This document shows, piece by piece, positions 44,951 to 60,528 of a stretch of 64,000 nt of DNA. Position numbers and translations under genes: made by a program. Source of the DNA: an uncultured delta proteobacterium (GTDB lineage: Bacteria; Myxococcota_A; Polyangia; Polyangiales; Polyangiaceae); NCBI GenBank assembly GCA_963782055.1, contig CAWAIF010000003.1:4992001-5056000 (forward strand), given 5' to 3'. The stretch's first letter is position 1. Every line of letters begins with the position of its first letter. The notes under the pieces are model-generated. The model saw only the letters and a program-made list of their open reading frames with translations, had not been told where the DNA came from and ran no database searches.

Positions 44951-46718
44951 TCAGAGCGCGAGCGGGTGCGGGTAGACGAACGGGACGTATCCAGGCTTCG
45001 GCACGCCGTTGTAGAAGTCTCGATTCTCGACGATGTGGAGCGTCGTGCGATCGGCGCCGCCGTCCGGGACCGTCCCGTACCCCCCGACCACCAGAAAGCC
45101 GCCGACCGTCCCGAGAAAATCGTTACCCCAGGAGTACGTCGGCGAAAGCTCCTGGTTCGTCGTCCTGCCCGTCTGGTCCTTGCACGGGTAGCCCTGCATC
45201 CCCTGAAAGTCACCGTCCACGGCGCCGTCGACGTGCGGCAGGCCATTGCAGAACGAGGCGTTGGCGGTGTCGGCGCCGGCGCCGAAGAAGCCATCGCTGC
45301 TGCGGTAGTTTCTCAGCTGCAGGAACGCGTTGTACGTGCCGTATTGCTGTGTCGCCCCGGGGCCGTTGGAGATCTTGTTGTCGAACACCACGCCCGACCC
45401 GGAGCGCGACTCGCACAGGAGACCGTGCGGATAGTCGGGCTCCGTCTCGCCCGTGGGCGAGCTGTTGACCATCGTGTTGTCGTAGATCTCGTACTGCATG
45501 GTCCCGCGGATGCTGCTGTCGAAGCCATGCCACCCGAGGTTTTGCCCGAACACCTTGCTGTGGCGCAGCACGAGGCGCGCGCCTTCGTAGGCGTCCTCGG
45601 GGCCGTTCGCGGTGTTCGGCATGTCGAACGTGTCGTCCTCGAGGAAGAGAGCGCCCGCCGTTCCGAGGCTCGGCGGCCTCGCCCACGAGTCGTTCGGGTC
45701 GCTCGTGCGCTGCGTCGTGTCTCCGACGATCGCGACCTCGGTCACGGACCCGGCGGTCTTGGACTTGCTGAAGTAGTCGTGATCGATCAGGCCGTACACG
45801 GCGTAGACGTGCATCCCGTAGGTCTGGAGGTTGACGAAGTTCGCGTGATCGACGCGCACGATCGCGCCGACGTCGCCGCCGACCTGCACGGCGCCGGTGC
45901 CGGACTTGGTGTTCTGCGCGCCGTCGAAGGTGAACCCGGTCACGCGGACGGACTTGCCGGCGGGTATCGCGACGGCCAGGGCGTACCCGCCGCTCAGCGT
46001 GTACTGGATCGTCGTGACGTCGACGCCGGCGCCGGCGAGGGTGACGGCCTTGCCCGTCGCCGGCTTGGTGGTCGAGGGTTGCGCCCCGATGGTGACGGCC
46101 TTCGTCCAGGTGCACGTGCCGGCGGGTACCTGGACGGTGTCCCCGTCCTTGGCCTGGTCGAGCGCCGACTGCACGTCGGCCGAGGAGCAGCTCGCCGCCT
46201 GGATGGTGTTGCCCGCGACGAGCCCGGAGAGATCGTAGCCGGATTCGATCCGGGCGGCACTTGAGCGTGCCGGACGCGTATCCCGGGACCATGAGCGTGG
46301 TCATCGAGCCGAGATCCGCGCCGTCGCAGGCCTCGCCCGCCTCCATCACCCCGTTGGCCGACGGGCCGGCCATGGCGGCCTTCGTCTGGAAGAGCGCGTC
46401 GACGACCGTGTCGGCGGCGACGGTGATCGTGCACGTCGGCGACGATCCCGAGCACGCGCCGCCCCAGTTCAAGAAGACCGAGTCGCTGCTCGGCGTGGCG
46501 GTGAGGGTGATCGAGTCGCCGACGGCGAGGCCCGACTGGCTCGCGCGCTTGCAGGTCGTGTCGCAGGAGATCGACCCACCGGTGACGAGGCCGGAGCCCT
46601 CGTACGATTTCTCGAGGGTGACCGTGAGGCCCGATACGCCGCCGTCAGGCGGCGTTGACGAGCCGGAGTTGCCGCAAGCCGCGAGGAGCAGGACCACGAG
46701 GCAGGCCGTTCGCCGCAT
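44951..46718 (-). pseudogene. Lipoprotein (InlB-B-like repeat + Cys-rich repeat + beta-helix domain) split by a +1 frameshift near 46244-46247 (real or sequencing error)
   Basis: LAAC lipobox; LTATPSSDSVFLNWGGACSG; NGVMEAGEACDGADLG...GTLKCRPD continues in another frame as SGYDLSGLVAGNTIQAASCS..VQSALDQAKDGDTVQVPAG. Confidence 0.75.
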
Positions 46719-46857
46719 TCTCCCTCCGTATCACGGTCCCCCGGCGGCCTCTGGTTACTTGTGGTTACATGCCCCAGCGCGCGGGAGGGGTGCACGACCG
46801 AAGCGCAGCGGTCGTGGTGTAGTGAACCCGGGGGGGCACAGCCGATGGAGGTCCGAG

Positions 46858-49800
46858 GTGGCGCAACGGTTCGAGCTGGTCGACGGGAAGTCGTCGAAGT
46901 TCTGGGAGGTGGAGCTCGTGGGGAGCGAGCTGCACGTGGCGTGGGGACGCATCGGCACCCGCGGCCAGTCTCAGGTGAAGCCTTTCGCCGACGAGGCAAC
47001 GGCGAGGGCGGCGCGAGACAAGCTGATCGCGACGAAGAAGGACAAGGGGTACGCGGCGGTGGGGGCCGACACGAAGGACGCCCCCGCGAAGAGCCCCGCA
47101 GCGAAGAGCCCCGCAGCGAAGAGCCCCCCCGCGAAGAGCCCCGCAGCGAAGGGCCCCGCAGCGAAGACCGGGCGTGCCGCTCCGACGAGCCCGGCGCCCG
47201 GGAGTGCCACCAGCGCCGGGCCCATCCCGCAGACGCCAGCAGACGACGCGCGCCCGGCACTGCCGGACGAGGACACGTTCGTCCTGCCGGATGCCTGGGC
47301 CAGACGTGTCCACCCGTGGCGCGGGCGCCGGAGCGACGGCGGCGCGACGACTCTGAACGGCAGCAGTTGCTACCGCAAGCTCCACACGCAATACGTGAAG
47401 ATGCAGCCCAAGGTGCAGGCGGCCTTCGGCAGGAAGACCGGCCGCCCCGACCTGCTCCGACGCATCGACGCGCTGCTCGGCACCACCGAGACGCACGTGC
47501 CGGACGACGTGGAGCTCGAAGCGGCTGCCGCCGTCGTCGTCGCGTACCCGGAGGCCGACAGGCGGAACAAGCCGGCCCACATCGTCGACTACTGGGTCGC
47601 CGCCGCCGGATACGTCTTCGCCACCGACGCGGCGCTCGAAGCGCTCGGCTTCGCGATGAACATCGTCTACGAGCTCGGCCGACCTCCGGAGGTCACCGGC
47701 CCGAAGTGGCGCAAGGAGGATGTCACGGTCCTCGCGCGGCTGCGCGAGCTCCTCGCCCAGGCGGACGAGGCCGACTACCTCGCGGCGCGTGACGCCGCAG
47801 CCGCGCGACGCGCGGGCGGCGACCGCATCGTGCGCGTCGCCACCTCGTACCTCTTTCCCACCGAGCAGGGCTGGGTGGAGGCCGACGTGGACCTGCTCTC
47901 CCAGGGCCGGACGACCGATTCCCGGGAGGTGGCCCTGGTCGCGTCGGTGATGCGCTTCGATCAGCTCGAGCGGCTCGGCGTCATCGCGCAGCCGCGCGGC
48001 ATCGTCGTCCAGACCTACGGTCTGCCCGACTGGCTGCCCTCCGTCGCCGCGGGGCTGGGGGCCGAGGCGGCCCGGGCGTGCAACGTCTGGCTCGACACGG
48101 CGTACGTCGACGCCGCCACGAAGCGTCGTCTGCTCGAATGCCTCGCCTTCATCCCGAGCGACGAGGCGATGGCCTGCCTCATCGATCGGCTCGACGAGCA
48201 ATACGTCCTGCCCGCCCTCACCGAGGCGACCGACCGCTTCCCCCGCCGCGCCCTCCGGCTGCTCGGCGCGCGCACGACCGACGGTGGCAAGGTCCACGAC
48301 AAGGCGCGCTCGCTCCTCGAGGCGGTGGCCCGGAGGTGGCCGCAGGCATTCGACGCCGTCCGCCCGGAGCTGCCCGAGACCGCGATCGCGGCCGTCGACG
48401 CCGCCGCCGAAGCGCACGCGCGAAGGCCCGACGCGCCCGCCGAGCTCCTTCCGAAGGTCCTGGTCTCGCCCGCCTGGACGTCCGGCAAGAAGGCGCCGAA
48501 GGCCGCGACCGTCACGGGCCTCCACGTGCTGCCCTACGAGGCCCGCATGACGTGGGAGGAGGGCGAGGAGGCGGCCTGGGCCAAGCGGCGCGCCTACTAC
48601 ATCCCGCCGGGCATCAAGGAGTGGACCCCGGCGAAGTGGAAGGACATGCACCAGGCGATCCGGACGGGCAAGATGCGGCCCTTCGAGGCGGGCCAGCTCC
48701 TCGTGCTCGGCCCGGAGGACGTGGCGCGCGCAGCGCTGGGCGACTGGGTGCCGGGCGACCCCTGGCACACGAGGCAGTGGATGGCGTCTATCGTGGCGCG
48801 GCACGGGATCGACGCGCTCGCGCCGCTCACGGCCTTCGCCGCAAGCTCGCTCAAGGACGCCGTCCAGTTCTTCGGGCCCTTCGACGCGCCGGCGCTCGCG
48901 CCCTGGGCCGCTCAGGCCCACGCAGGTCTCAAGTCGGCCCGGGCAGACGCCCAGGCGTGGCTCGTTCGCCACCCGGAGGCGGCGACGGTCGGCCTCTTGC
49001 CCGACGCCGTCGGCGGCTGGCCGAGCAAGGCGCGCGACACGGCCGAAGCCGCGCTCCGCTTCCTCGCCCAGCACGGACATCACGACGTGGTGATGGCCGT
49101 CGCCCGGCGCTACGGCGAGCCGGCGGCCGCGGCCGTCGAGCAAACGCTGTCGATGGACCCGCTCGACCTCCTGCCGGCGAAGATGCCCACGATGCCGGCG
49201 TTCTGGAACCCGAGCGCCCTGCCCCCTCCCCTGCTCCACGATCGCTCGCACCAGCTGCCGAACGCGGCCATCGAGCACCTCGGGACGATGCTCGCGATCT
49301 CTCCACCGGGCGAGGCCTATGCGGGCCTCGAGATCGTGAAAGAGGCGTGCGACGGGCCCTCCCTCGCGCGGTTCGCCTGGGCTCTGTTCGAGGCATGGCG
49401 AGCGGCGGGCACGCCGTCCAAGGAGAGCTGGGCCTTCACCGCGCTGGGCGTCCTGGGCGACGACGAGACCGCCCGCTCCCTCGCACCCATCATCCGCAAG
49501 TGGCCCGGCGAAGGAGGGCACGCGCGCGCCGTCATGGGGCTCGACGTGCTCGCCGCCATCGGCTCCGACGTGGCGCTGATGCACCTCTTCGGCATCGCGC
49601 AGCGCGTGAAGTTCAAGGCGCTCAAGGAGCGGGCGCGCGACAAGATCCAGGAGATCGCGCGGGCCCGCGACCTGACGCCGGAGGAGCTCGCCGATCGGCT
49701 GGTGCCGGACCTGGGCCTCGACGAAGGCGGCTCGATGGTCCTCGACTACGGCGAGCGCGCCTTCACGGTGGGCTTCGACGAGCACCTCAAGCCCTTCGTC

Positions 49801-50628
49801 CTGGACGCTTCGGGCAAGCCCCTCAAGGTGCTGCCCAAGCCCGGCAAGCAGGACGACCCGGACAAGGCACCCGCCGCGTACGACGCCTTCGGCGCGTTGA
49901 AGAAGGACGCCCGGACCGTGGCGAAGGACCAGCTCTTGCGTCTCGAGCTGGCGATGTGCGGGCAGCGCCGGTGGCCGGCCTCCCTGTTCCGGCAGTTCTT
50001 CGTCGCCCATCCGCTCCTCATCCACCTCGTGCGGCGTCTCGTGTGGGCGACCTACGACGGCGACGGGCGGGTCGAGGCGACGTTCCGGGTCGTCGAGGAC
50101 AGCTCCTTCGCCGACGCGAACGACGAAGCCTTCACCCTCGACGAGAGCGCGACGGTCGGCATCCCCCACAGGCTCGACCTCGACGGGGCGGTCGCTGCGC
50201 GGTGGGGGGACGTCTTCGGCGACTACGAGATCCTGCAGCCCTTCGTCCAGCTCGGTCGCGACATCCACGCGCCGACGAGCGACGAGAAGAAGGCGACCAG
50301 CATCGCGCGGGTCAGCGGCACCACGATCCCCACCGGCAAGGTCCTCGGCCTCGAGACGCGGGGCTGGCGACGCGGCACGCCGCAGGACGCCGGCATCGTC
50401 GGCTGGGTCGAGAAGGAGCTGCGGGGAGGTCACCGGGCCTACCTCGCGCTCGAGCCGGGCATCTTCACCGGCTACATCGAGGAGTCCCCGGAGCAGAAGC
50501 TGGGCGAGGTGTACGTGGGCTCGGGCGACCATGTGGTCTGGAACCATGAGGGCACGGTGCCGATCGGCGACCTCGACCCGGTCGTCTTCAGCGAGCTGGT
50601 GCGTGACCTGGCGCAGCTCACGGAGTGA
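46858..50628 (+). CDS. WGR-domain + DUF4132 (MolR-like) protein
   Basis: SSKFWEV...WGRIGTRGQ...KGY; ELADRLVPDLGLD, RLELAM...RRW, HPLL..LVRRLVW, DYEILQPF.QL.R; GTG start with GGAGG SD. Confidence 0.9.
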   Translation: MAQRFELVDGKSSKFWEVELVGSELHVAWGRIGTRGQSQVKPFADEATARAARDKLIATKKDKGYAAVGADTKDAPAKSPAAKSPAAKSPPAKSPAAKGPAAKTGRAAPTSPAPGSATSAGPIPQTPADDARPALPDEDTFVLPDAWARRVHPWRGRRSDGGATTLNGSSCYRKLHTQYVKMQPKVQAAFGRKTGRPDLLRRIDALLGTTETHVPDDVELEAAAAVVVAYPEADRRNKPAHIVDYWVAAAGYVFATDAALEALGFAMNIVYELGRPPEVTGPKWRKEDVTVLARLRELLAQADEADYLAARDAAAARRAGGDRIVRVATSYLFPTEQGWVEADVDLLSQGRTTDSREVALVASVMRFDQLERLGVIAQPRGIVVQTYGLPDWLPSVAAGLGAEAARACNVWLDTAYVDAATKRRLLECLAFIPSDEAMACLIDRLDEQYVLPALTEATDRFPRRALRLLGARTTDGGKVHDKARSLLEAVARRWPQAFDAVRPELPETAIAAVDAAAEAHARRPDAPAELLPKVLVSPAWTSGKKAPKAATVTGLHVLPYEARMTWEEGEEAAWAKRRAYYIPPGIKEWTPAKWKDMHQAIRTGKMRPFEAGQLLVLGPEDVARAALGDWVPGDPWHTRQWMASIVARHGIDALAPLTAFAASSLKDAVQFFGPFDAPALAPWAAQAHAGLKSARADAQAWLVRHPEAATVGLLPDAVGGWPSKARDTAEAALRFLAQHGHHDVVMAVARRYGEPAAAAVEQTLSMDPLDLLPAKMPTMPAFWNPSALPPPLLHDRSHQLPNAAIEHLGTMLAISPPGEAYAGLEIVKEACDGPSLARFAWALFEAWRAAGTPSKESWAFTALGVLGDDETARSLAPIIRKWPGEGGHARAVMGLDVLAAIGSDVALMHLFGIAQRVKFKALKERARDKIQEIARARDLTPEELADRLVPDLGLDEGGSMVLDYGERAFTVGFDEHLKPFVLDASGKPLKVLPKPGKQDDPDKAPAAYDAFGALKKDARTVAKDQLLRLELAMCGQRRWPASLFRQFFVAHPLLIHLVRRLVWATYDGDGRVEATFRVVEDSSFADANDEAFTLDESATVGIPHRLDLDGAVAARWGDVFGDYEILQPFVQLGRDIHAPTSDEKKATSIARVSGTTIPTGKVLGLETRGWRRGTPQDAGIVGWVEKELRGGHRAYLALEPGIFTGYIEESPEQKLGEVYVGSGDHVVWNHEGTVPIGDLDPVVFSELVRDLAQLTE
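47086..47167 (+). repeat. 15-bp coding tandem repeat (about 5.5 units, AKSPA)
   Basis: GCGAAGAGCCCCGCA units at 47086, 47101, 47116 (variant), 47131, 47146 (variant). Confidence 0.9.
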
Positions 50629-50729: not shown

Positions 50730-51886
50730 ATGCAGGAGGCCACGGCGATGCGGCTCGAGACGCGGATGTACACAAGGGCGGCAGGCTGGTCCGCGCCGCT
50801 GCCCGCCGAGCTGGACTCGGAGGCCACGGTGGTCCTGGCCTTCGGCGCCCCCTCCTTCCGCGACGCCCCGGCGGCCCTGGGCGAGCTGCGCCGCGCGCTG
50901 CCGCGCTCCCGCGCGCTCGGATGCTCCACGGCGGGGGAGATCCTCCAGGACCGCATCCACGACGAGTCGCTGGTGGTCGCGATCGCGCGCTTCGACGCGG
51001 TGCGCGCCCGTACGGCGTCCGCACCCATCGCGCCCGGGAAGGCCTCCTTCGCGGCGGGGCAGGCACTCGCCGGGCAGCTCGCCGCACCTGGCCTGCGCGC
51101 CGTCTTCGTGCTGAGCGAAGGACTTGCAGTCAACGGGAGCGAGCTGGTGCGCGGCCTCCAGGTGGGTCTCCCCGCGGGCACCAGCGTCACCGGGGGTCTC
51201 GCGGCGGACGGGACGAGCTTCGGCCGGACGTGGGTGCTGGACGGAGAGGGTCCCGCGTCTCACCGCGCGGTGGCGCTCGGCCTGTACGGCGACCGCCTGC
51301 TCACCACCCACGGGTCGAAGGGCGGCTGGGACATCTTCGGGCTGGAGCGGCGGGTCACTCGCTCCGCGGGCAACGTGCTCTACGAGCTGGACGGCAAGCC
51401 GGCGCTGGCGCTCTACAAGGACTACCTCGGAGATCGTGCCACGGGCCTGCCCGCCACGGCGTTGCTCTTCCCGCTGGCCGTGCGGGCGCGGACCGGCGAC
51501 GAGAAACATCTCGTGCGCACGGTGCTCGCGGTGGACGAGGAGGAGCAGTCGCTCACCTTCGCCGGGGACATCCCCGAAGGGTGCCTCGCGCAGCTCATGC
51601 GAGCGAACTTCGACCGGCTGATCGACGGGGCGCACGGGGCCGCGAAGCTCGCGCAGGTGCAGGAGGGCGACGGCCCGGTGCTCCTGGTCGCCATCAGCTG
51701 CGTCGGCCGGCGCCTGGTGCTGGGGGAGCGCACCGAAGAAGAGGTGGAGGCCACCCTGGACGTGCTGCCGCGGCCCGCGACGCGGCAGGTCGGCTTCTAC
51801 TCGTACGGGGAGATCTCCCCCTTCGCCGCCGGTGGCTGCGACCTGCACAATCAGACGATGACCCTCACCACCTTCTCGGAGCGCTG

Positions 51887-51887
<1 letters not shown>
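50730..51887 (+). CDS. FIST N/C domain sensor (NosP-like)
   Basis: GCSTAGEI, VNGSELV, GGLAAD, ISCVGRR, GFYSYGEI, LHNQTMT. Confidence 0.92.
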
Positions 51888-53935
<2,048 letters not shown>

Positions 53936-54754: not shown

Positions 54755-55594
54755 ATGCGACGCCTCATCTACCTGTGCGCCTTCGGCGTGACTCTGCTGG
54801 GCTGCTACCTCGGCAACAGCGCTACGACGGGGGATCCTCGAGGGGGCGGGACGACGCCATACGACGGCGGAGGCGGCTCCTCCCTGCCCGGGGACGTGCC
54901 CTGCGACGTGGCGAGCGCGGTGGAGCTCTGCCAGGCGTGCCACGGCCCGACGCCGGCCGGGGGCGCGGCGATCTCCCTCGCTTCGTACGCGGACCTCACG
55001 GCTGACTCCCCGCAGTACCCTGGCCAGACGGAGGCGCAGCGCGCCGTCGCCCGCATGCAAGGCAACCCGTCGGCGATGCCGCCGGCGCCGGCCTCCCCCC
55101 CGCCGCAGGCGAACATCGACGCGCTCAACACCTGGATCGCCGCGGGGTACCCCAAGGGCACCTGCGGGGGAGCGCAGTCGGTGTGCACGAGCGGCAGGAC
55201 CGTGACCCTCAACGAGGGCCGGGACATGCAACCGGGAGCGGCGTGCATCACCTGCCACCAGGGCTCGGGGGGCGAGGCGCGGATCTACACGTTCATGGGC
55301 ACGGTCTATCCCACCCTGCACGAGCCGGACAACTGCGCCGGCGCGTCCTCCTCGTCGTACGCCGGCGCGCAGGTCACGGTCATCGACGCGCACGGCAACA
55401 CCTTCTCCATGACGCCAAACAGCAGCGGCAACTTCATGGGCTCGCCGACCTCCTTCACGATGCCCTTCACCGCGAAGGTCACCTACCAGGGCCGCGAGAT
55501 CGACATGACGACGCCGCAGACCAGCGGCGACTGCAACGCGTGCCACACCGAGCAAGGCGCGAGCAGCGCCCCGGGGCGGGTCGTGCTGCCGTGA
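54755..55594 (+). CDS. Triheme c-type cytochrome lipoprotein
   Basis: LLGC lipobox; CQACH (+MPP), CITCH, CNACH. Confidence 0.9.
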   Translation: MRRLIYLCAFGVTLLGCYLGNSATTGDPRGGGTTPYDGGGGSSLPGDVPCDVASAVELCQACHGPTPAGGAAISLASYADLTADSPQYPGQTEAQRAVARMQGNPSAMPPAPASPPPQANIDALNTWIAAGYPKGTCGGAQSVCTSGRTVTLNEGRDMQPGAACITCHQGSGGEARIYTFMGTVYPTLHEPDNCAGASSSSYAGAQVTVIDAHGNTFSMTPNSSGNFMGSPTSFTMPFTAKVTYQGREIDMTTPQTSGDCNACHTEQGASSAPGRVVLP

Positions 55595-55634: not shown

Positions 55635-56381
55635 CTAGTGCTTCTTCTCGAACTTGTCGGTGTAGATGCTGACGTAGATCCCCTTGTGCGGGACCGCCGG
55701 CGGGATCTCCACCGCGACGAGCACCTTGCCGACCTTGCGCACCTCGGTCGTCGACGGACCGCCGATACGCCAGCCGTTCGTGGCCAAGGAGAGCGGGTAC
55801 TTCGCCTTCGCGCTCAGGCCGCGCACGTAGTCGTAGAGTCCCCCTTCGATCTGCGCCTCGTCGCCGTCGTTCTTCAGCAAGCTGGCGAGCTCGATCGTCG
55901 CCGCGAGCATCGCGGGCTTGTCCCCCGGATCGGTCGGCTTGATCGTCGAGATCCAGGCGAAGCGATCGCCGCCGCGCTTGCCCACCGCGAGCGCGGAGAG
56001 CTCGACGTTCTTCTGCAGCGACTGCGCCGCCGGAAAATCGTCGGAGAGGCCGATGCTGAAGCCGAGGTAGCTGCCGGCGTCGTCGAGCGAGCCGTCGCGC
56101 TCGCCCTTGTCGAAGCCATCGGCGAGGCACCACAGGCGGTTCGGGCCCGTCTTCGTGGGGCAGCCGGCGGCCTTCGAGAGGGCGCTCATCAGACGGGGGA
56201 CGATGGCCTGATCGGTGATCGGGGCGACGGTCGCGGTCGCGGTCGCCGTCGCCGCCGTCGCGGTCGCGATGCTGGTCGTGCCGCCGCCGTCGCTTGCGTG
56301 CTTGTGGCCCTTGCAGGCGAGCACGCCGGCGAGCAGGAGGGTGGCGGCAGCCGTGACCGACAGGCGCTCGGGAATGCTCAT
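55635..56381 (-). CDS. Hypothetical lipoprotein
   Basis: VLAC lipobox, Thr/Ala linker; ATGA overlap with the lipocalin stop. Confidence 0.8.
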   Translation of the reverse strand: MSIPERLSVTAAATLLLAGVLACKGHKHASDGGGTTSIATATAATATATATVAPITDQAIVPRLMSALSKAAGCPTKTGPNRLWCLADGFDKGERDGSLDDAGSYLGFSIGLSDDFPAAQSLQKNVELSALAVGKRGGDRFAWISTIKPTDPGDKPAMLAATIELASLLKNDGDEAQIEGGLYDYVRGLSAKAKYPLSLATNGWRIGGPSTTEVRKVGKVLVAVEIPPAVPHKGIYVSIYTDKFEKKH

Positions 56382-57016
56382 TGGGTCCTTCGTCTGCGGA
56401 CCGTGAGGGCGAGCAGGCCGGCCATCGTCAAGATCAGCCCCGCGCCGTCGTGCGCCCCGCCGGCGCCGCCGGCGTCGCAGCCGCTCGAGGGGGGTGGAGC
56501 CGGCGGCGGCGTGCTGTCCTGGTCGGTATACTCGATCTTGGTCGTGTCGAAGCCGTCGTCGCTGGCGAACTTCAGCGCCGCGTCGATGTCGCTCTGCGCC
56601 ATGTGCTTGTCGCGGGCGAGGATCCACAGGTACTGCCGGGACGGGTGGCCGACGACGAACCAGCTCTGGTCGGGGGCCATGTACAGGACGTCGTAGTCCC
56701 CGAGGAAGCCGCCCAGGTCGATCTTCAGCCGGCCCTGCTCCGAGGGGTTGGAGGCGTAGAGCGCCGCGGTGGACGTCAGGTGCTCGCCGTTGGCCAGCAC
56801 GCAGTCGTGCACGACCCCCATCTTGGACGAGTCGATGGCCTTGTACGTCGCCACCGTGTGGCTGCAACCCTGCTCGGTGGGCCGCGGCAGGTGGGCGATC
56901 TCGTACCAGGTGCCCTGGAGCTGAGCGAGCTTCACGTCGGGCGCCACGTCGAGCGGCGGATCGCACGCCGCCGTCGCGAGCGCCACGCAGAGGAGAGCCA
57001 CCTTCACGACGTTCAT
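56378..57016 (-). CDS. Bacterial lipocalin (Blc-like) with C-terminal MYXO-CTERM-like tail
   Basis: TAAC lipobox, GTWYEIAHLP, SRQYLWILAR; SSGC...LILTMAGLLALTVRRRR. Confidence 0.9.
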   Translation of the reverse strand: MNVVKVALLCVALATAACDPPLDVAPDVKLAQLQGTWYEIAHLPRPTEQGCSHTVATYKAIDSSKMGVVHDCVLANGEHLTSTAALYASNPSEQGRLKIDLGGFLGDYDVLYMAPDQSWFVVGHPSRQYLWILARDKHMAQSDIDAALKFASDDGFDTTKIEYTDQDSTPPPAPPPSSGCDAGGAGGAHDGAGLILTMAGLLALTVRRRRTQ

Positions 57017-57522
57017 GCTCGCCTCCTCCTTCGCCGAAGGATCACGCCGCCCACGAGCAGCGCCGCGATCGCCGGCACCATCGGGCCGGTGCCGCCCGGC
57101 GACGCGCCGCAGCCGTAGATCACGACGTCGCCCGTGTTGCCGCCGCCGGCGGTGCCCCCGTCGCACTGGACGTTCGCGTTCGGGTCGTTGCACGCCTTGA
57201 GCTCGTCGGTGTCGATCAGGCCGTCGCAGTTGGTGTCGATCTTGTTCGACGTCATCTGGGTGAGGGCGGCCTGCAGCGACGCCTGGTCGTACTTCACCAG
57301 GCCGTAGATCTGCATCTGCCGGCCGAACGGCTTGGTGATGGTGCCCGCACCGCCTGCGTTGTTGGTGTGGCACACGTTGCACTGGGGCACGCACGAGACG
57401 CCCAGGTCCGACGCGATCGCCGCGGGGAAGTCGGGCGTGGCCCGCGCGACCGCCGGCGTCAGCAGGAGCGCCGCCGCGATCGACGCGAGCACGAGGGCGT
57501 GGCGGGTCGGGGAGGCGGACAT
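57013..57522 (-). CDS. Monoheme c protein with MYXO-CTERM-like sorting tail
   Basis: Signal ending ARA; FP...CNVCH...GGAG..TKPFGR; DTNCDGLID; YGC...AIAALLVGGVILRRRRRR. Confidence 0.85.
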   Translation of the reverse strand: MSASPTRHALVLASIAAALLLTPAVARATPDFPAAIASDLGVSCVPQCNVCHTNNAGGAGTITKPFGRQMQIYGLVKYDQASLQAALTQMTSNKIDTNCDGLIDTDELKACNDPNANVQCDGGTAGGGNTGDVVIYGCGASPGGTGPMVPAIAALLVGGVILRRRRRRA

Positions 57523-58787
57523 CAGAGGTACCCGTGGAGCTGGAAGAGGAAGGACGTCACGTCGGAGCGGGAGGACACGCCGGCGATGGACTGCTGCACC
57601 CAGTCGAAGCGGAAGTCGAAGTGGGGCGCGAAGAACCACCAGACCCCGAGCCAGCCACCCACCGACGTGGACACCTGATCGAAGGACGGGTTGTAGAACT
57701 CACCGGTGGCGAGGATGTGGATGCCCTGGAACACCTGCACGTCCGCCTGGAGGTAGCCCACCGTGCCGAAGTGGTTCTCCGCCTGGCCGGAGACGAGCTC
57801 CGAGTTGAAGAGCAGGTCCGCCTCCGCGAGCAGGACGAGCGGCTCCACGGGCGAGACCCGGGCGAACAAGCCGTGGGCCTGGCGCCACGCCGGTCCCGGC
57901 TGCACCGCGGGGTTCATCTCCTTGCCGATGAGATCCGTTCGCGACTCGTCCGCGTGCGTGATCTCGGAGCTCACGCCGAAGCCCATCTTCTCCGCGGCGA
58001 GCCACTCGAGGTAGGCGGAGCCACCGCGCTCGTGCGGGCCGTCCCAGCTGCTGGCCCCGTGGATCTGGTAGTTGCCGAGGATGGCCATCGCCTCCCCGCG
58101 GAAGTGCTCCCCGGTGTACGCGAGGGAGAGGCCGTGCTCCTGCGCGGCGTTGATGTCACTGCGCGTGGCGACGCGCGCCCAGAGCGTGTGCTCCACCGAT
58201 CTCAGCCCGAAGGGCACGTTCATCCTGCCGAGGCGCAGCAGGAACTGGTTGTCCGCGCCCAGATCGACGCCCATCCAGTACTGCCGCGCGACGATGGCGC
58301 CCCAGTCGGCTGGCTGGTTGGTCACCGAGGCGGCGAGCGCGCCGCTGTCGCGATTGTAGCCGATGCTCCCGTTCAGGCGGAACCGGCCGAACTTGAGCTG
58401 CGCGGACTGGTCGGCCTGCATCAGCACGACGCGCGGGGTCGCGTACCCGGACGAGCTCGTCCCGTTGACGTACAGGAGCGTGCGCACGTCCGTCTGCAGC
58501 AGCAGCTGATCGGGCAGCGTCACGCCGCCGAACAGGAAGTTGCCGAGGGTCCCGGGGTCCTCAATCTTCCCCTTGTAAGGCGTGCGGAGGACCACCTCCT
58601 CCATCCCGCGGCCGTACTGCGTGAGGATCCCCGAACCGGATGGGTCCGCGTGGCACGTGTTGCACGTGTTGTAGCCCTCGCGGATCATCCACGGGAACGC
58701 GTGGGCGGTGCGGCTGGACAGCACCACGTACAGCATCACCGCGAGCGCACCGAGGGCGCGCAGCACCAGTTGGGTCGACCGAGTCAT
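57522..58787 (-). CDS. Cytochrome c-porin fusion (Cyc2-like architecture)
   Basis: Signal ending AHA, then FPWMIREGYNTCNTCHADPSGSGILTQYGR; alternating beta-strands; LGRMNVPFGL; C-terminal FQLHGYL. Confidence 0.8.
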   Translation of the reverse strand: MTRSTQLVLRALGALAVMLYVVLSSRTAHAFPWMIREGYNTCNTCHADPSGSGILTQYGRGMEEVVLRTPYKGKIEDPGTLGNFLFGGVTLPDQLLLQTDVRTLLYVNGTSSSGYATPRVVLMQADQSAQLKFGRFRLNGSIGYNRDSGALAASVTNQPADWGAIVARQYWMGVDLGADNQFLLRLGRMNVPFGLRSVEHTLWARVATRSDINAAQEHGLSLAYTGEHFRGEAMAILGNYQIHGASSWDGPHERGGSAYLEWLAAEKMGFGVSSEITHADESRTDLIGKEMNPAVQPGPAWRQAHGLFARVSPVEPLVLLAEADLLFNSELVSGQAENHFGTVGYLQADVQVFQGIHILATGEFYNPSFDQVSTSVGGWLGVWWFFAPHFDFRFDWVQQSIAGVSSRSDVTSFLFQLHGYL

Positions 58788-59109
58788 GCGTGCGTCGAAG
58801 GCTTTGGAGGGGCCTCTCCCGCTACTCCGTGGCGTTGAACTCCACCTGCACGTCCACCCCGGGCTTCACCGTGATGCCAAGAGACGAAGGGGTCGGGGTG
58901 CCGCAGTCGCGGATGTCGAGGCGAACCGTCCCGAGCTCGCGCAGCGTACTCCGAGTCCTGCCGAGGGTGTAGTGAAACGTTCTCGCCTTGGACTTGCCGT
59001 GGAGTCTTCGCCATCCTTCCATCGCGTGGGCGCGAACCGGGTGCGCCCTTCGTGCAACGGTCGCCCAAGACGGAAGACCCCGCACAAGTCCAACACGCGG
59101 AGGGAGCGG

Positions 59110-60528
59110 ATGATGTCCAGGACGATTTCGGTGTTCATTGCAGGACTCGTCACCTTCGCGCTCGGGTGCGGAGCGGAGACCGCCGCGGGCAAGATCGGCC
59201 CTGTCCCGGTGCCCCCCACGCCGCCCCCCCCTGTCGTCCACGGTGTTGCGGCCACGCAGTTTCGCGCGGCCATGGCCGCCTTCATCGCGCACGACACCGC
59301 GAGCCCGCCGTCGTGGGACGCCGCGAGCTGCGCCGAGGTCGCCCGGATGTTCGACGCCTCGGCCTCCTCGCACGGCAAGTTCCCCGAGGCCACCTTCGAC
59401 GCCGGCCTCGCCTACCAGCGCTGTCACGACTCCAGCGCGGCGCTCGAGCACTTCCAGAAGGCGCTCGCCCAGGACGCGAAGTTCCACCCCGCGCGCGTGC
59501 AGGTCGCCCTCTACCGCTACAGGGCGGATGGCAACATCGACACGGCGATCGCCCAGCTCCACCGAGCCGTCCTCGACGCCCAGTTCCGCGACGTCGCCGC
59601 CCTCGTCAACCTCGCGATGCTCCAGATGCAGCGCGGCGCCCCCACCGCCGGCATCCGCTGCAGCGACGACATGGAGTGTGCGAAGACGAACCTCCAGCGC
59701 GCGCTCGCGATCGACGACAGCTACATGCCTGCGTTCAATCAGCTCGCCCTCTTCTACCTTCAGCAGGCGAAGGCCCGCGCCGGGGAGAGCACCCATCGCG
59801 GCGGCCGCAGCGTCGCCACCAGCGTGTCGACGACGAAGCGCGCCGACGTCCAGCAGCTCGAGCTCGCCGCGCTCGTCTGCTCGCAGGCCATCCGCAAGAG
59901 TCCCGACTACGCGCCCATCCACAACACCGCAGGCCTGATCCAGAACGAGCTCGGCTCCATCAACGGCGCCGTCGCCGAGTTCGCCACGGCCGCCCGCCTC
60001 GACCCGGGCTTCTTCGAGGCGCGGATGAACTACGCCGCGGTCAACCTCTCCTTCCGCGGCTTCGGTCAGGCCGAGAGCGCCTACAAGCGCGCGCTCGCGC
60101 TGCCCGGGCACGAGAAGGACTACGACGCGCACCTCGGCCTGGCGCTGGCGCTGCGCGGCCAGATCACCGACGCCAACTACGAGGCGCAGGTCGCCGCAGT
60201 GCAGTCGCAGCTCGACACGTGCAAGTCGGTCGACCCGAGCCGCCCCGACGCCTACTTCAACGAGGGCATCCTCACGCAGGAGTACAAGGCGAAGGCAGGG
60301 ACCAGCGCGGACGCGACCATCGCGTCCCTCGAGGCGGCCATCGCCAGCCTGACCGACTTCGTGGCGAAGGCCGCGGGGAAGCCGGCGTACGACGGCGCGG
60401 TGAAGCGGGCGGAGGAGCGGATCCAGGACGCGAGGGACACCATCAGCTTCCTCCGGGTGCCGAAGCTCACGCCCCAGGCCGGTGCGGCGCCCGGGAGTGG
60501 ATCGGCTCCCACGCGCGCCGGCGAGTGA
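59110..60528 (+). CDS. TPR-repeat lipoprotein (possibly GltE/AglT-like)
   Basis: ALGC lipobox, GGAG SD; many TPR units (FDAGLAY, HNTAGLI, HLGLALAL, YFNEGIL). Confidence 0.8.
   Translation: MMSRTISVFIAGLVTFALGCGAETAAGKIGPVPVPPTPPPPVVHGVAATQFRAAMAAFIAHDTASPPSWDAASCAEVARMFDASASSHGKFPEATFDAGLAYQRCHDSSAALEHFQKALAQDAKFHPARVQVALYRYRADGNIDTAIAQLHRAVLDAQFRDVAALVNLAMLQMQRGAPTAGIRCSDDMECAKTNLQRALAIDDSYMPAFNQLALFYLQQAKARAGESTHRGGRSVATSVSTTKRADVQQLELAALVCSQAIRKSPDYAPIHNTAGLIQNELGSINGAVAEFATAARLDPGFFEARMNYAAVNLSFRGFGQAESAYKRALALPGHEKDYDAHLGLALALRGQITDANYEAQVAAVQSQLDTCKSVDPSRPDAYFNEGILTQEYKAKAGTSADATIASLEAAIASLTDFVAKAAGKPAYDGAVKRAEERIQDARDTISFLRVPKLTPQAGAAPGSGSAPTRAGE

Follow-up and report, generated by a model that had tools for sequence, protein, structure and literature searches.

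Organization of the locus

The window analysed here, a 64,000 nt stretch of the genome of an uncultured delta proteobacterium of the Polyangiaceae (assembly GCA_963782055.1, contig CAWAIF010000003.1, positions 4,992,001 to 5,056,000; positions given without a prefix are those of the window), contains a run of four minus-strand genes. The first two encode a predicted outer-membrane porin fused to a monoheme c module (gene 1) and a monoheme protein with a MYXO-CTERM surface-sorting tail (gene 2). Comparison across the Myxococcota reveals that genes 1 and 2 are a co-inherited, near-obligately linked pair, and that the conserved unit is this pair with an upstream YceI gene as the usual third partner.

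Gene 1 (57522..58787, 421 aa) encodes a signal peptide, a monoheme c module with CxxCH at residues 42–46 and a predicted 16-stranded outer-membrane porin. Gene 2 (57013..57522, 169 aa) encodes a signal peptide, a monoheme c domain (CxxCH at residues 48–52), a DxDxDG-type Ca loop and a YGC motif with the MYXO-CTERM tail; these two genes form the conserved core. Gene 3 (56378..57016, 212 aa) encodes a lipocalin of the Blc/TIL (temperature-induced lipocalin) type with a lipoprotein-like signal Cys and its own MYXO-CTERM tail. The product of gene 4 (55635..56381, 248 aa) is a lipoprotein that matched no known family in Pfam and NCBIfam scans. As originally predicted, stop and start codons overlap throughout (TGATG at 57522, ATGA at 57013-16 and ATGA at 56378-81), and the heme-motif strings quoted for genes 1 and 2 are correct. 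All four open reading frames (ORFs) have a G+C content at third codon positions of 0.94–0.96 and positive codon scores. No sigma-70 promoter was found at the locus, and a terminator was detected at chance level only.

The proposal that all four genes form one operonic unit does not extend beyond this window. Gene 4 is translationally coupled here, but adjoins gene 1 in only one of 66 loci, the present one, and its relatives, found in 7 of 151 genomes, are unlinked to gene 1 loci; it was therefore rejected as a component of the system and is considered a passenger. The partner found most often is YceI, with the lipocalin as an accessory. Two flanking features had been overlooked: the C-terminal remnant of a YceI gene (58822..59016, minus strand) and a convergent triheme lipoprotein gene (54755..55594, plus strand).

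Co-inheritance of genes 1 and 2

In all, 104 loci were examined by six-frame searches with hidden Markov models; the 26 distant ones were set aside, leaving 78 in which gene 1 scored at least 250. The gene immediately after gene 1 is gene 2 in 71 of the 75 core loci with enough flank, as judged with a gene 2 profile built in part from the surveyed loci. That count includes 19/19 held-out loci, which come from other classes and lie outside that profile; the same arrangement was found in five of five further loci chosen for their lipocalin–gene 2 operons. Among 401 Myxococcota genomes, gene 1 is present in 40 at E<1e-80 (80 at any level) and gene 2 in 39 at E<1e-20 (91 at any level, for the most part through the tail), counts in which related genomes are not independent and the carriers span at least six families. 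All 39 gene 2 genomes fall within the 40 gene 1 genomes; in the exception, gene 1 lies at a contig end. Co-occurrence in other genomes, a check that the original prediction had named, is thus borne out for the first two genes.

Gene 1, a predicted heme-porin

Searches with gene 1 returned 502 homologues at E<=0.001 among 8000 scored candidates, and a profile search of cluster representatives gave 367 matches at E<=1e-30. Where named, the matches belong to Polyangiaceae, Labilithrix, Polyangia or unclassified 'Deltaproteobacteria' and are annotated as hypothetical proteins; the nearest Atlas clusters are unnamed and mostly from Myxococcota. No Pfam family scored above its cut-off (the best was Porin_O_P, 15.7 bits), no NCBIfam model matched, and the gene 1 profile had no matches when run against PDB sequences. 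The named cultured carrier is Labilithrix luteola, so that the ideas set out below are open to test.

Of the checks named for gene 1 itself, the conservation of CxxCH and, in a structure prediction, the barrel fold came out as expected. The CxxCH (C42-H46) is retained in 118 of 120 sequences, comprising the query and the 119 matches listed, the exceptions being one truncated sequence and one variant; it is also present in 94/96 full-length deeper relatives. AlphaFold2 predicts a barrel of 16 long strands, counted by hand, with a mean predicted local distance difference test score (pLDDT) of 91, and Foldseek matched the model to the porins PorB, OmpT, OprP and OprO, the closest folds being general hydrophilic porins. 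The signal peptide was called by eye and from the N-terminal helix of the model.

Covariation in 316 sequences couples Ala47 with Gln130, Asp175 and Arg137, and pairs Glu63 with Tyr420, Thr69 with Phe353 and Arg68 with Ala387. The barrel positions were read as periplasmic strand ends, and the heme module is therefore predicted to cap the periplasmic mouth of the barrel, near His357, His389 and His418; this signal is not independent of the alignment underlying the AlphaFold2 model. Met123, His200 and His418 are invariant throughout the gene 1 family and also in two further groups, represented by 24 distant relatives. Judged from conservation and covariation only, the sixth heme ligand is likely to be one of these three residues or the N-terminal amine, which serves as a heme ligand in cytochrome f. 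Met123 and His200 are predicted to lie further out than His418. The four candidates provide concrete residues with which to approach heme ligation in monoheme porins.

The two further groups of monoheme porins (L130-L142 and L088-L091, L143-L149) occur in up to four copies per genome and without gene 2. They are flanked by PSCyt1-like, cupredoxin, diheme or Rieske genes, and several of their upstream partners match PSCyt1 yet carry no CxxCH. Among distant gene 1 relatives as a whole, cupredoxins, diheme cytochromes and Rieske proteins are frequent neighbours, and YceI occurs once. An apparent YceI–gene 1 fusion (P0257) was rejected as a probable frameshift read-through, because a signal peptide lies within it and its C-terminus is derailed.

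Relationship of gene 1 to Cyc2

The original prediction described gene 1 as Cyc2-like, which holds for the architecture. As described for Cyc2 and Cyt572 in the accessible text of the relevant reports (10.1101/228056; PMC13692758; PMC13741234), gene 1 combines a signal peptide, one N-terminal CXXCH spaced as in those proteins from an AxP..R start, and a predicted 16-stranded OprO/P-like barrel with the heme predicted to be periplasmic, in a protein longer than 365 aa. Its N-terminus resembles the sequenced N-terminus of Cyt572 (PMC13741234, available part).

The likeness does not extend to the sequence motifs. In the part of their report available, Keffer et al. (10.1101/228056) define Cyc2 by AXPXFAR[Q/K][T/Y] upstream of CXXCH and PXL downstream. 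Each of these motifs is absent from all gene 1 sequences compared (0/118 homologues and 0/94 deeper relatives), whereas a relaxed AxP/A...R spacing ahead of the CxxCH is seen in 99/118 homologues, and a PSGxG loop follows the heme His. The same genome encodes a separate protein with both strict motifs (L152:8022-9506, G000:C3:4246021-4247505, plus strand; 495 aa), which has 978 relatives, from Myxococcota where named, and likewise matches no NCBIfam model. Its gene is followed by those for a carboxypeptidase-regulatory/cupredoxin-like lipoprotein and an azurin-like protein. When this strict-motif family (59 of the 120 listed matches aligned), which is myxobacterial and not a validated oxidase, was compared with that of gene 1, the alignment was confined to 77 columns at the N-terminus (probability 91). 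A longer profile link between the two families is transitive: it passes through group C, an intermediate group that matches gene 1 full-length (99.7) and the strict-motif family along 345 columns (92.8). Because both defining motifs are absent and direct alignment is N-terminal only, gene 1 is, on sequence grounds, a distant sister family that is built like Cyc2 but is no member of it.

Gene 1 could nevertheless be a divergent Cyc2-type oxidase, in which oxidation of Fe(II) or another reduced metal, at the surface or within the pore, would send electrons inward. The common architecture, the Cyt572-like N-terminus and the transitive profile link are in keeping with this. The uniform absence of both motifs, the restriction of direct alignment to the N-terminus and the presence in the same genome of a strict-motif gene with its own cupredoxin-like neighbours are not, and Labilithrix luteola is an aerobic heterotroph. 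We regard such an oxidase as very unlikely. Further differences from Cyc2 are the invariant Met123, His200 and His418, and the partners, which are a near-obligate surface-tagged monoheme protein and YceI in place of cupredoxins and periplasmic cytochromes.

Genes of the Cyc2-like type are taken to mark iron oxidation. The gene 1 family places the Cyc2 architecture in a motif-negative branch with other partners, present in about 10% of sampled Myxococcota genomes (40/401), and monoheme porins therefore probably do more than oxidize iron.

Gene 2, a surface-tagged monoheme protein

The CxxCH of gene 2 is present in 71/71 locus copies, with the DxDxDG-type loop in 54/71 and the Arg cluster of the tail in 63/71; the Pfam family TSP3_bac matches 23 of 97 members. 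The core is modelled at pLDDT 85–98. When the model was compared with solved structures, including class I cytochromes c, Foldseek gave no match at E<=0.001 and the best VIA-align Z score was 2.9, from a list dominated by the transmembrane tail, which demonstrates neither a new nor a different fold. NF041762 (diheme GEGP) was rejected as the family of gene 2; 39/97 copies match it weakly, far under the cut-off, and this was taken as a shared motif.

It had also been suggested that one heme domain occurs in both genes. A likeness is real but amounts to a motif of about 25 residues: with signal peptides excluded, 25 columns align at an HH probability of 95, a score reached by one of 100 shuffles in which CxxCH was fixed, and an unrelated CxxCH control scored 54. 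The gene 2 module is reused elsewhere. It lies N-terminal to a DUF1549/1585/1588-like region in secreted diheme proteins of 450–525 aa (L184, L186-L190), and it recurs in a Myxococcota CxxCH protein (L192:3609-4478, minus strand) that passes Pfam Temptin_C (PF24784; 41 vs 27 bits) and shares 69 aligned columns with the gene 2 profile (probability 96). Temptin is a mollusc pheromone protein in which, to our knowledge, no heme has been reported. The L192 protein suggests that temptin may derive from a bacterial heme-c minidomain; the link to gene 2 is transitive only, as gene 2 itself is not matched by PF24784 (0/97 members, and none in its own genome).

The MYXO-CTERM tails predicted for genes 2 and 3 score narrowly above the TIGR03901 cut-off of 20 bits (22.5 and 21.1 bits respectively). 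According to the accessible text of PMC11980579, MYXO-CTERM proteins are cleaved and displayed on the cell surface via the T2SS (type II secretion system). The host genome encodes cytochrome c maturation and assembly proteins, GspD (above its cut-off) and eight Rce1-like protease genes, which may include a myxosortase. Gene 2 is the first candidate heme protein among MYXO-CTERM substrates in the literature searched, and the available part of 10.1101/2023.06.07.544157 mentions no heme protein among them.

A surface location for gene 2 may be questioned. If its tail were uncleaved or lipidated, the protein would be anchored in the inner membrane and could wire that membrane to the gene 1 heme from inside. 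Both hemes would then lie on one side, given the predicted position of the porin heme at the periplasmic rim, and the problem of distance discussed below would disappear; only 28/97 members match MYXO-CTERM at E<=0.05, the scores barely exceed the cut-off, and some copies carry an internal tail followed by a diheme lipoprotein. The tag Cys (Cys138), however, is 99% conserved, and the transmembrane helix and Arg cluster that follow conform to the MYXO-CTERM pattern. The MYXO-CTERM proteins that were tested end up at the cell surface, and processing has been proposed for internal tags as well (PMC11980579). We give a periplasmic gene 2 product only a slight chance.

In six loci (L045, L047, L050, L053, L250 and L251) the MYXO-CTERM of gene 2 is internal in this way, and after it come another hydrophobic segment with a Cys and then a diheme domain; in L046 a triheme domain takes the last position. 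From their sequences, these fusions are candidate polyproteins cut by myxosortase.

Gene 3, a lipocalin associated with gene 2

Gene 3 is clearly a member of Lipocalin_2 (E 1.5e-31, 109.8 bits vs a cut-off of 24), and its best solved relatives are the plant TIL and Blc. The original assignment to Blc holds at this level but not at that of the Blc subfamily model NF007786 (71.9 vs a cut-off of 267 bits). The view of the lipocalin as a purely local neighbour, taken from its presence near gene 1 in 3/69 core loci, was revised by a search from the lipocalin side, which found 29 loci in 25 of 151 genomes, 10 of the 29 with gene 2 within 1.5 kb. Four of these ten have the order gene 1–gene 2–lipocalin and six are lipocalin–gene 2 operons (locus L244 is the same DNA as L001). 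All six genomes with the two-gene operons carry gene 1 elsewhere. The Blc-type lipocalin is thus a recurrent accessory of gene 2.

YceI, multiheme partners and neighbouring genes

YceI lies directly upstream of gene 1 in 42/78 loci, including the remnant in the window, and anywhere in the locus in 46/78. The remnant (about 64 codons, the 5' part missing, where YceI normally leads the operon) matches the intact gene of locus L001 at 58% identity along 64 aa and has a decayed codon score. The copies in L001 and L003 belong to Pfam YceI. L003 is a paralogous locus in the same genome (G000:C3:1826351-1828373, minus strand), in which YceI is intact and gene 1 is present as a second copy (51% identical), but gene 2 is absent; judged from its gene content, it may complement the window, which has gene 1, gene 2, the lipocalin and the broken YceI. 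According to PMC9113575, most crystals of YceI proteins contain octaprenyl ligands or ubiquinone-8, and one member of the family, BcnA, protects together with a cytochrome b561 from lipid peroxyl radicals, by way of a proposed quinone cycle.

The convergent triheme lipoprotein of the window, with a class I cytochrome c domain and a diheme domain, is a recurrent partner. The diheme domain occurs in 14/78 loci, whereas a 13 kb stretch of this genome would be expected to contain it about 0.01 times. It is fused behind the gene 2 tail in four loci and two later ones, and a different, triheme fusion occurs in one locus. A redox context for the locus, as originally proposed, is supported.

The original prediction allowed for the handling of heme or a hydrophobic ligand as well as for electron transfer, and between these functions of genes 1–3 we can only infer. 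In a transport system, the surface lipocalin and gene 2 would capture heme or another hydrophobic ligand, the porin would pass it and YceI would receive it in the periplasm. Lipid-binding barrels would indeed flank the pore on both sides, with the conserved His357, His389 and His418 clustered at its periplasmic rim, and a FecR/extracytoplasmic function (ECF) sigma pair is divergent in several close relatives, as it is in L003. A CxxCH, however, implies a covalently fixed heme and not a cargo, the closest folds of gene 1 are hydrophilic porins, and no TonB-type or ABC partner recurred among the inspected neighbour clusters, which are part of all neighbours. Transport appears decidedly unlikely.

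In one family of loci (L055-L060, L073), genes 1 and 2 are preceded by same-strand DUF1592/DUF1588 and DUF1552 genes. Upstream of the window locus, and divergent from it, a plus-strand ORF (58708-60528, probably starting near 59107) encodes a TPR lipoprotein resembling GltE (54 bits, far under the cut-off); it occupies the expected place of the YceI 5' part. On the other side, sequences judged by eye include a FIST-domain-like protein followed by a PAS hybrid histidine kinase (50730-53935, plus strand) and a large WGR-domain/DUF4132-like protein (46261-50628, plus strand). Elsewhere in the genome there is a cluster of large multiheme ORFs (L153, G000:C3:3612000-3630000), with up to 26 CxxCH in one frame, counted with overlaps, and 13, 10 and 5 in others; 141 coding-like CxxCH ORFs were counted genome-wide.

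Proposed function

We tentatively propose, at a little under even chances, an outward relay by genes 1 and 2: a quinol bound to YceI would supply electrons, which would pass by way of the porin heme to the surface cytochrome beyond the outer membrane and probably reduce lipid-soluble oxidants. The quinol, an isoprenoid, would be ferried through the periplasm by YceI, which would reduce the heme of gene 1; the electron would cross the pore via a Met123/His200 site or aromatic residues and arrive at the gene 2 heme on the cell surface. In favour of the relay are the near-obligate linkage of the two genes, the recurrence of YceI with its quinone-type ligands, the lipocalin as a second lipid-binding barrel beside gene 2, the redox neighbours of distant gene 1 relatives, the invariant Met123, His200 and His418, and the surface display of MYXO-CTERM proteins. 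Since gene 2 has no conserved His or Met outside the CxxCH, and hence no conserved sixth ligand, its heme may be completed by a partner or by its own N-terminus, or may be open for substrate. The most likely sink would be a lipid-soluble oxidant, such as a lipid peroxide or a quinone, presented by the lipocalin. Such a system would be an outer-membrane counterpart of the YceI/cytochrome b561 defence against peroxyl radicals, and its parts could be divided in this genome between the window and L003.

A number of observations weigh against this relay. The hemes would lie on opposite faces, about one membrane width apart, far more than the range of about 14 Å for direct heme-to-heme electron transfer; an intermediate carrier would therefore be needed. 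Four gene 1 loci have no adjacent gene 2, and YceI is absent from 32/78 loci and broken in the window. The distant relatives that retain Met123, His200 and His418 do so without any gene 2, and these residues are therefore not specific to the pair. As for the lipocalin, it is near gene 1 in only the three core loci mentioned and is linked to the gene 1–gene 2 locus in only one of six same-genus relatives. In addition, the five lipocalin–gene 2 operons tested, of six, form one clade (support 95) in a gene 2 tree made by a quick method, with 41 of 73 inner branches open, and therefore count as one event. Finally, RNA evidence is confined to a single 255 nt contig, 100% identical to 58589-58843, from one soil RNA library (share 0.06), which may be DNA carry-over; that run gave no cover outside this interval.

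The same membrane-width gap, which speaks against a direct wire, would be accommodated if the hemes were separate catalytic or sensing centres, for example peroxidase-like, nitric oxide-binding or involved in redox gating of the pore. An open heme site in gene 2 would fit the composition of its cores, 42/76 of which have no His outside the CxxCH and five of which have neither His nor Met, with Met at position 70 in 56%. The two-gene lipocalin operons, with no gene 1 nearby, and the reuse of the module in DUF1549/1588-like proteins and the Temptin_C protein point the same way. Against this, gene 2 is nearly always adjacent to gene 1, the six genomes with lipocalin–gene 2 operons still have gene 1 elsewhere, and the fusions of gene 2 to diheme and triheme domains suggest an electron relay. 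Separate centres seem to us unlikely.

The outward relay can be extended, more speculatively and with rather low expectation, to a 'lipid-phase' conduit, in which YceI, as a soluble quinone carrier, would stand in for a multiheme wire in the periplasm, the outer membrane would be spanned by a heme-capped porin that has a Met/His site inside, and a sortase-anchored, temptin-related cytochrome and a surface lipocalin would reduce or oxidize hydrophobic substrates outside. If this is correct, predatory aerobes would have a trans-outer-membrane redox system of a new class, and animal temptin and the heme module of Cyc2 would go back to one ancestral heme-c minidomain. A role for YceI as a periplasmic quinone shuttle is a testable physiological function.

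Comparison with known systems

The gene 1–gene 2 module is real, strongly conserved and apparently undescribed; full-text literature on Cyc2, MYXO-CTERM, YceI, temptin, Labilithrix and TIL contained no description of the system, a search whose scope excluded supplementary trees, models and substrate tables and most subscription journals. The nearest parallel on the periplasmic side is BcnA (YceI) with LcoA (cytochrome b561), where, in the available part of PMC9113575, a YceI gene is likewise linked to a membrane cytochrome (here in 42/78 loci) and a quinone shuttle is proposed. Here, by contrast, the cytochrome is a c-type outer-membrane porin fusion encoded downstream of YceI, accompanied by a surface-tagged cytochrome and sometimes by a Blc-type lipocalin. 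Among 78 selected neighbours scanned, a subset of all neighbours, no cytochrome b561 was found.

MtrCAB and MtoAB resemble the present system in combining an outer-membrane barrel with a surface-exposed cytochrome delivered by the T2SS. In MtrCAB-type complexes a multiheme wire runs inside a large barrel, whereas here each core gene has one CxxCH in place of decaheme wires, the predicted 16-stranded barrel is itself fused to the heme module, and anchoring would be by MYXO-CTERM. TraAB is a kin-recognition adhesin that is not known to have heme motifs. In the accessible text of PMC11980579, the gene for a MYXO-CTERM protein, TraA, overlaps that for an outer-membrane barrel, TraB, in myxobacteria, and internal-tag fusions are known; the gene order is the reverse of that of genes 1 and 2, and family scans revealed no sequence similarity. 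The gene 1–gene 2 module is firmly, in its anatomy, a variant of the cytochrome-porin kind, and in its mechanism it may move electrons across the outer membrane.

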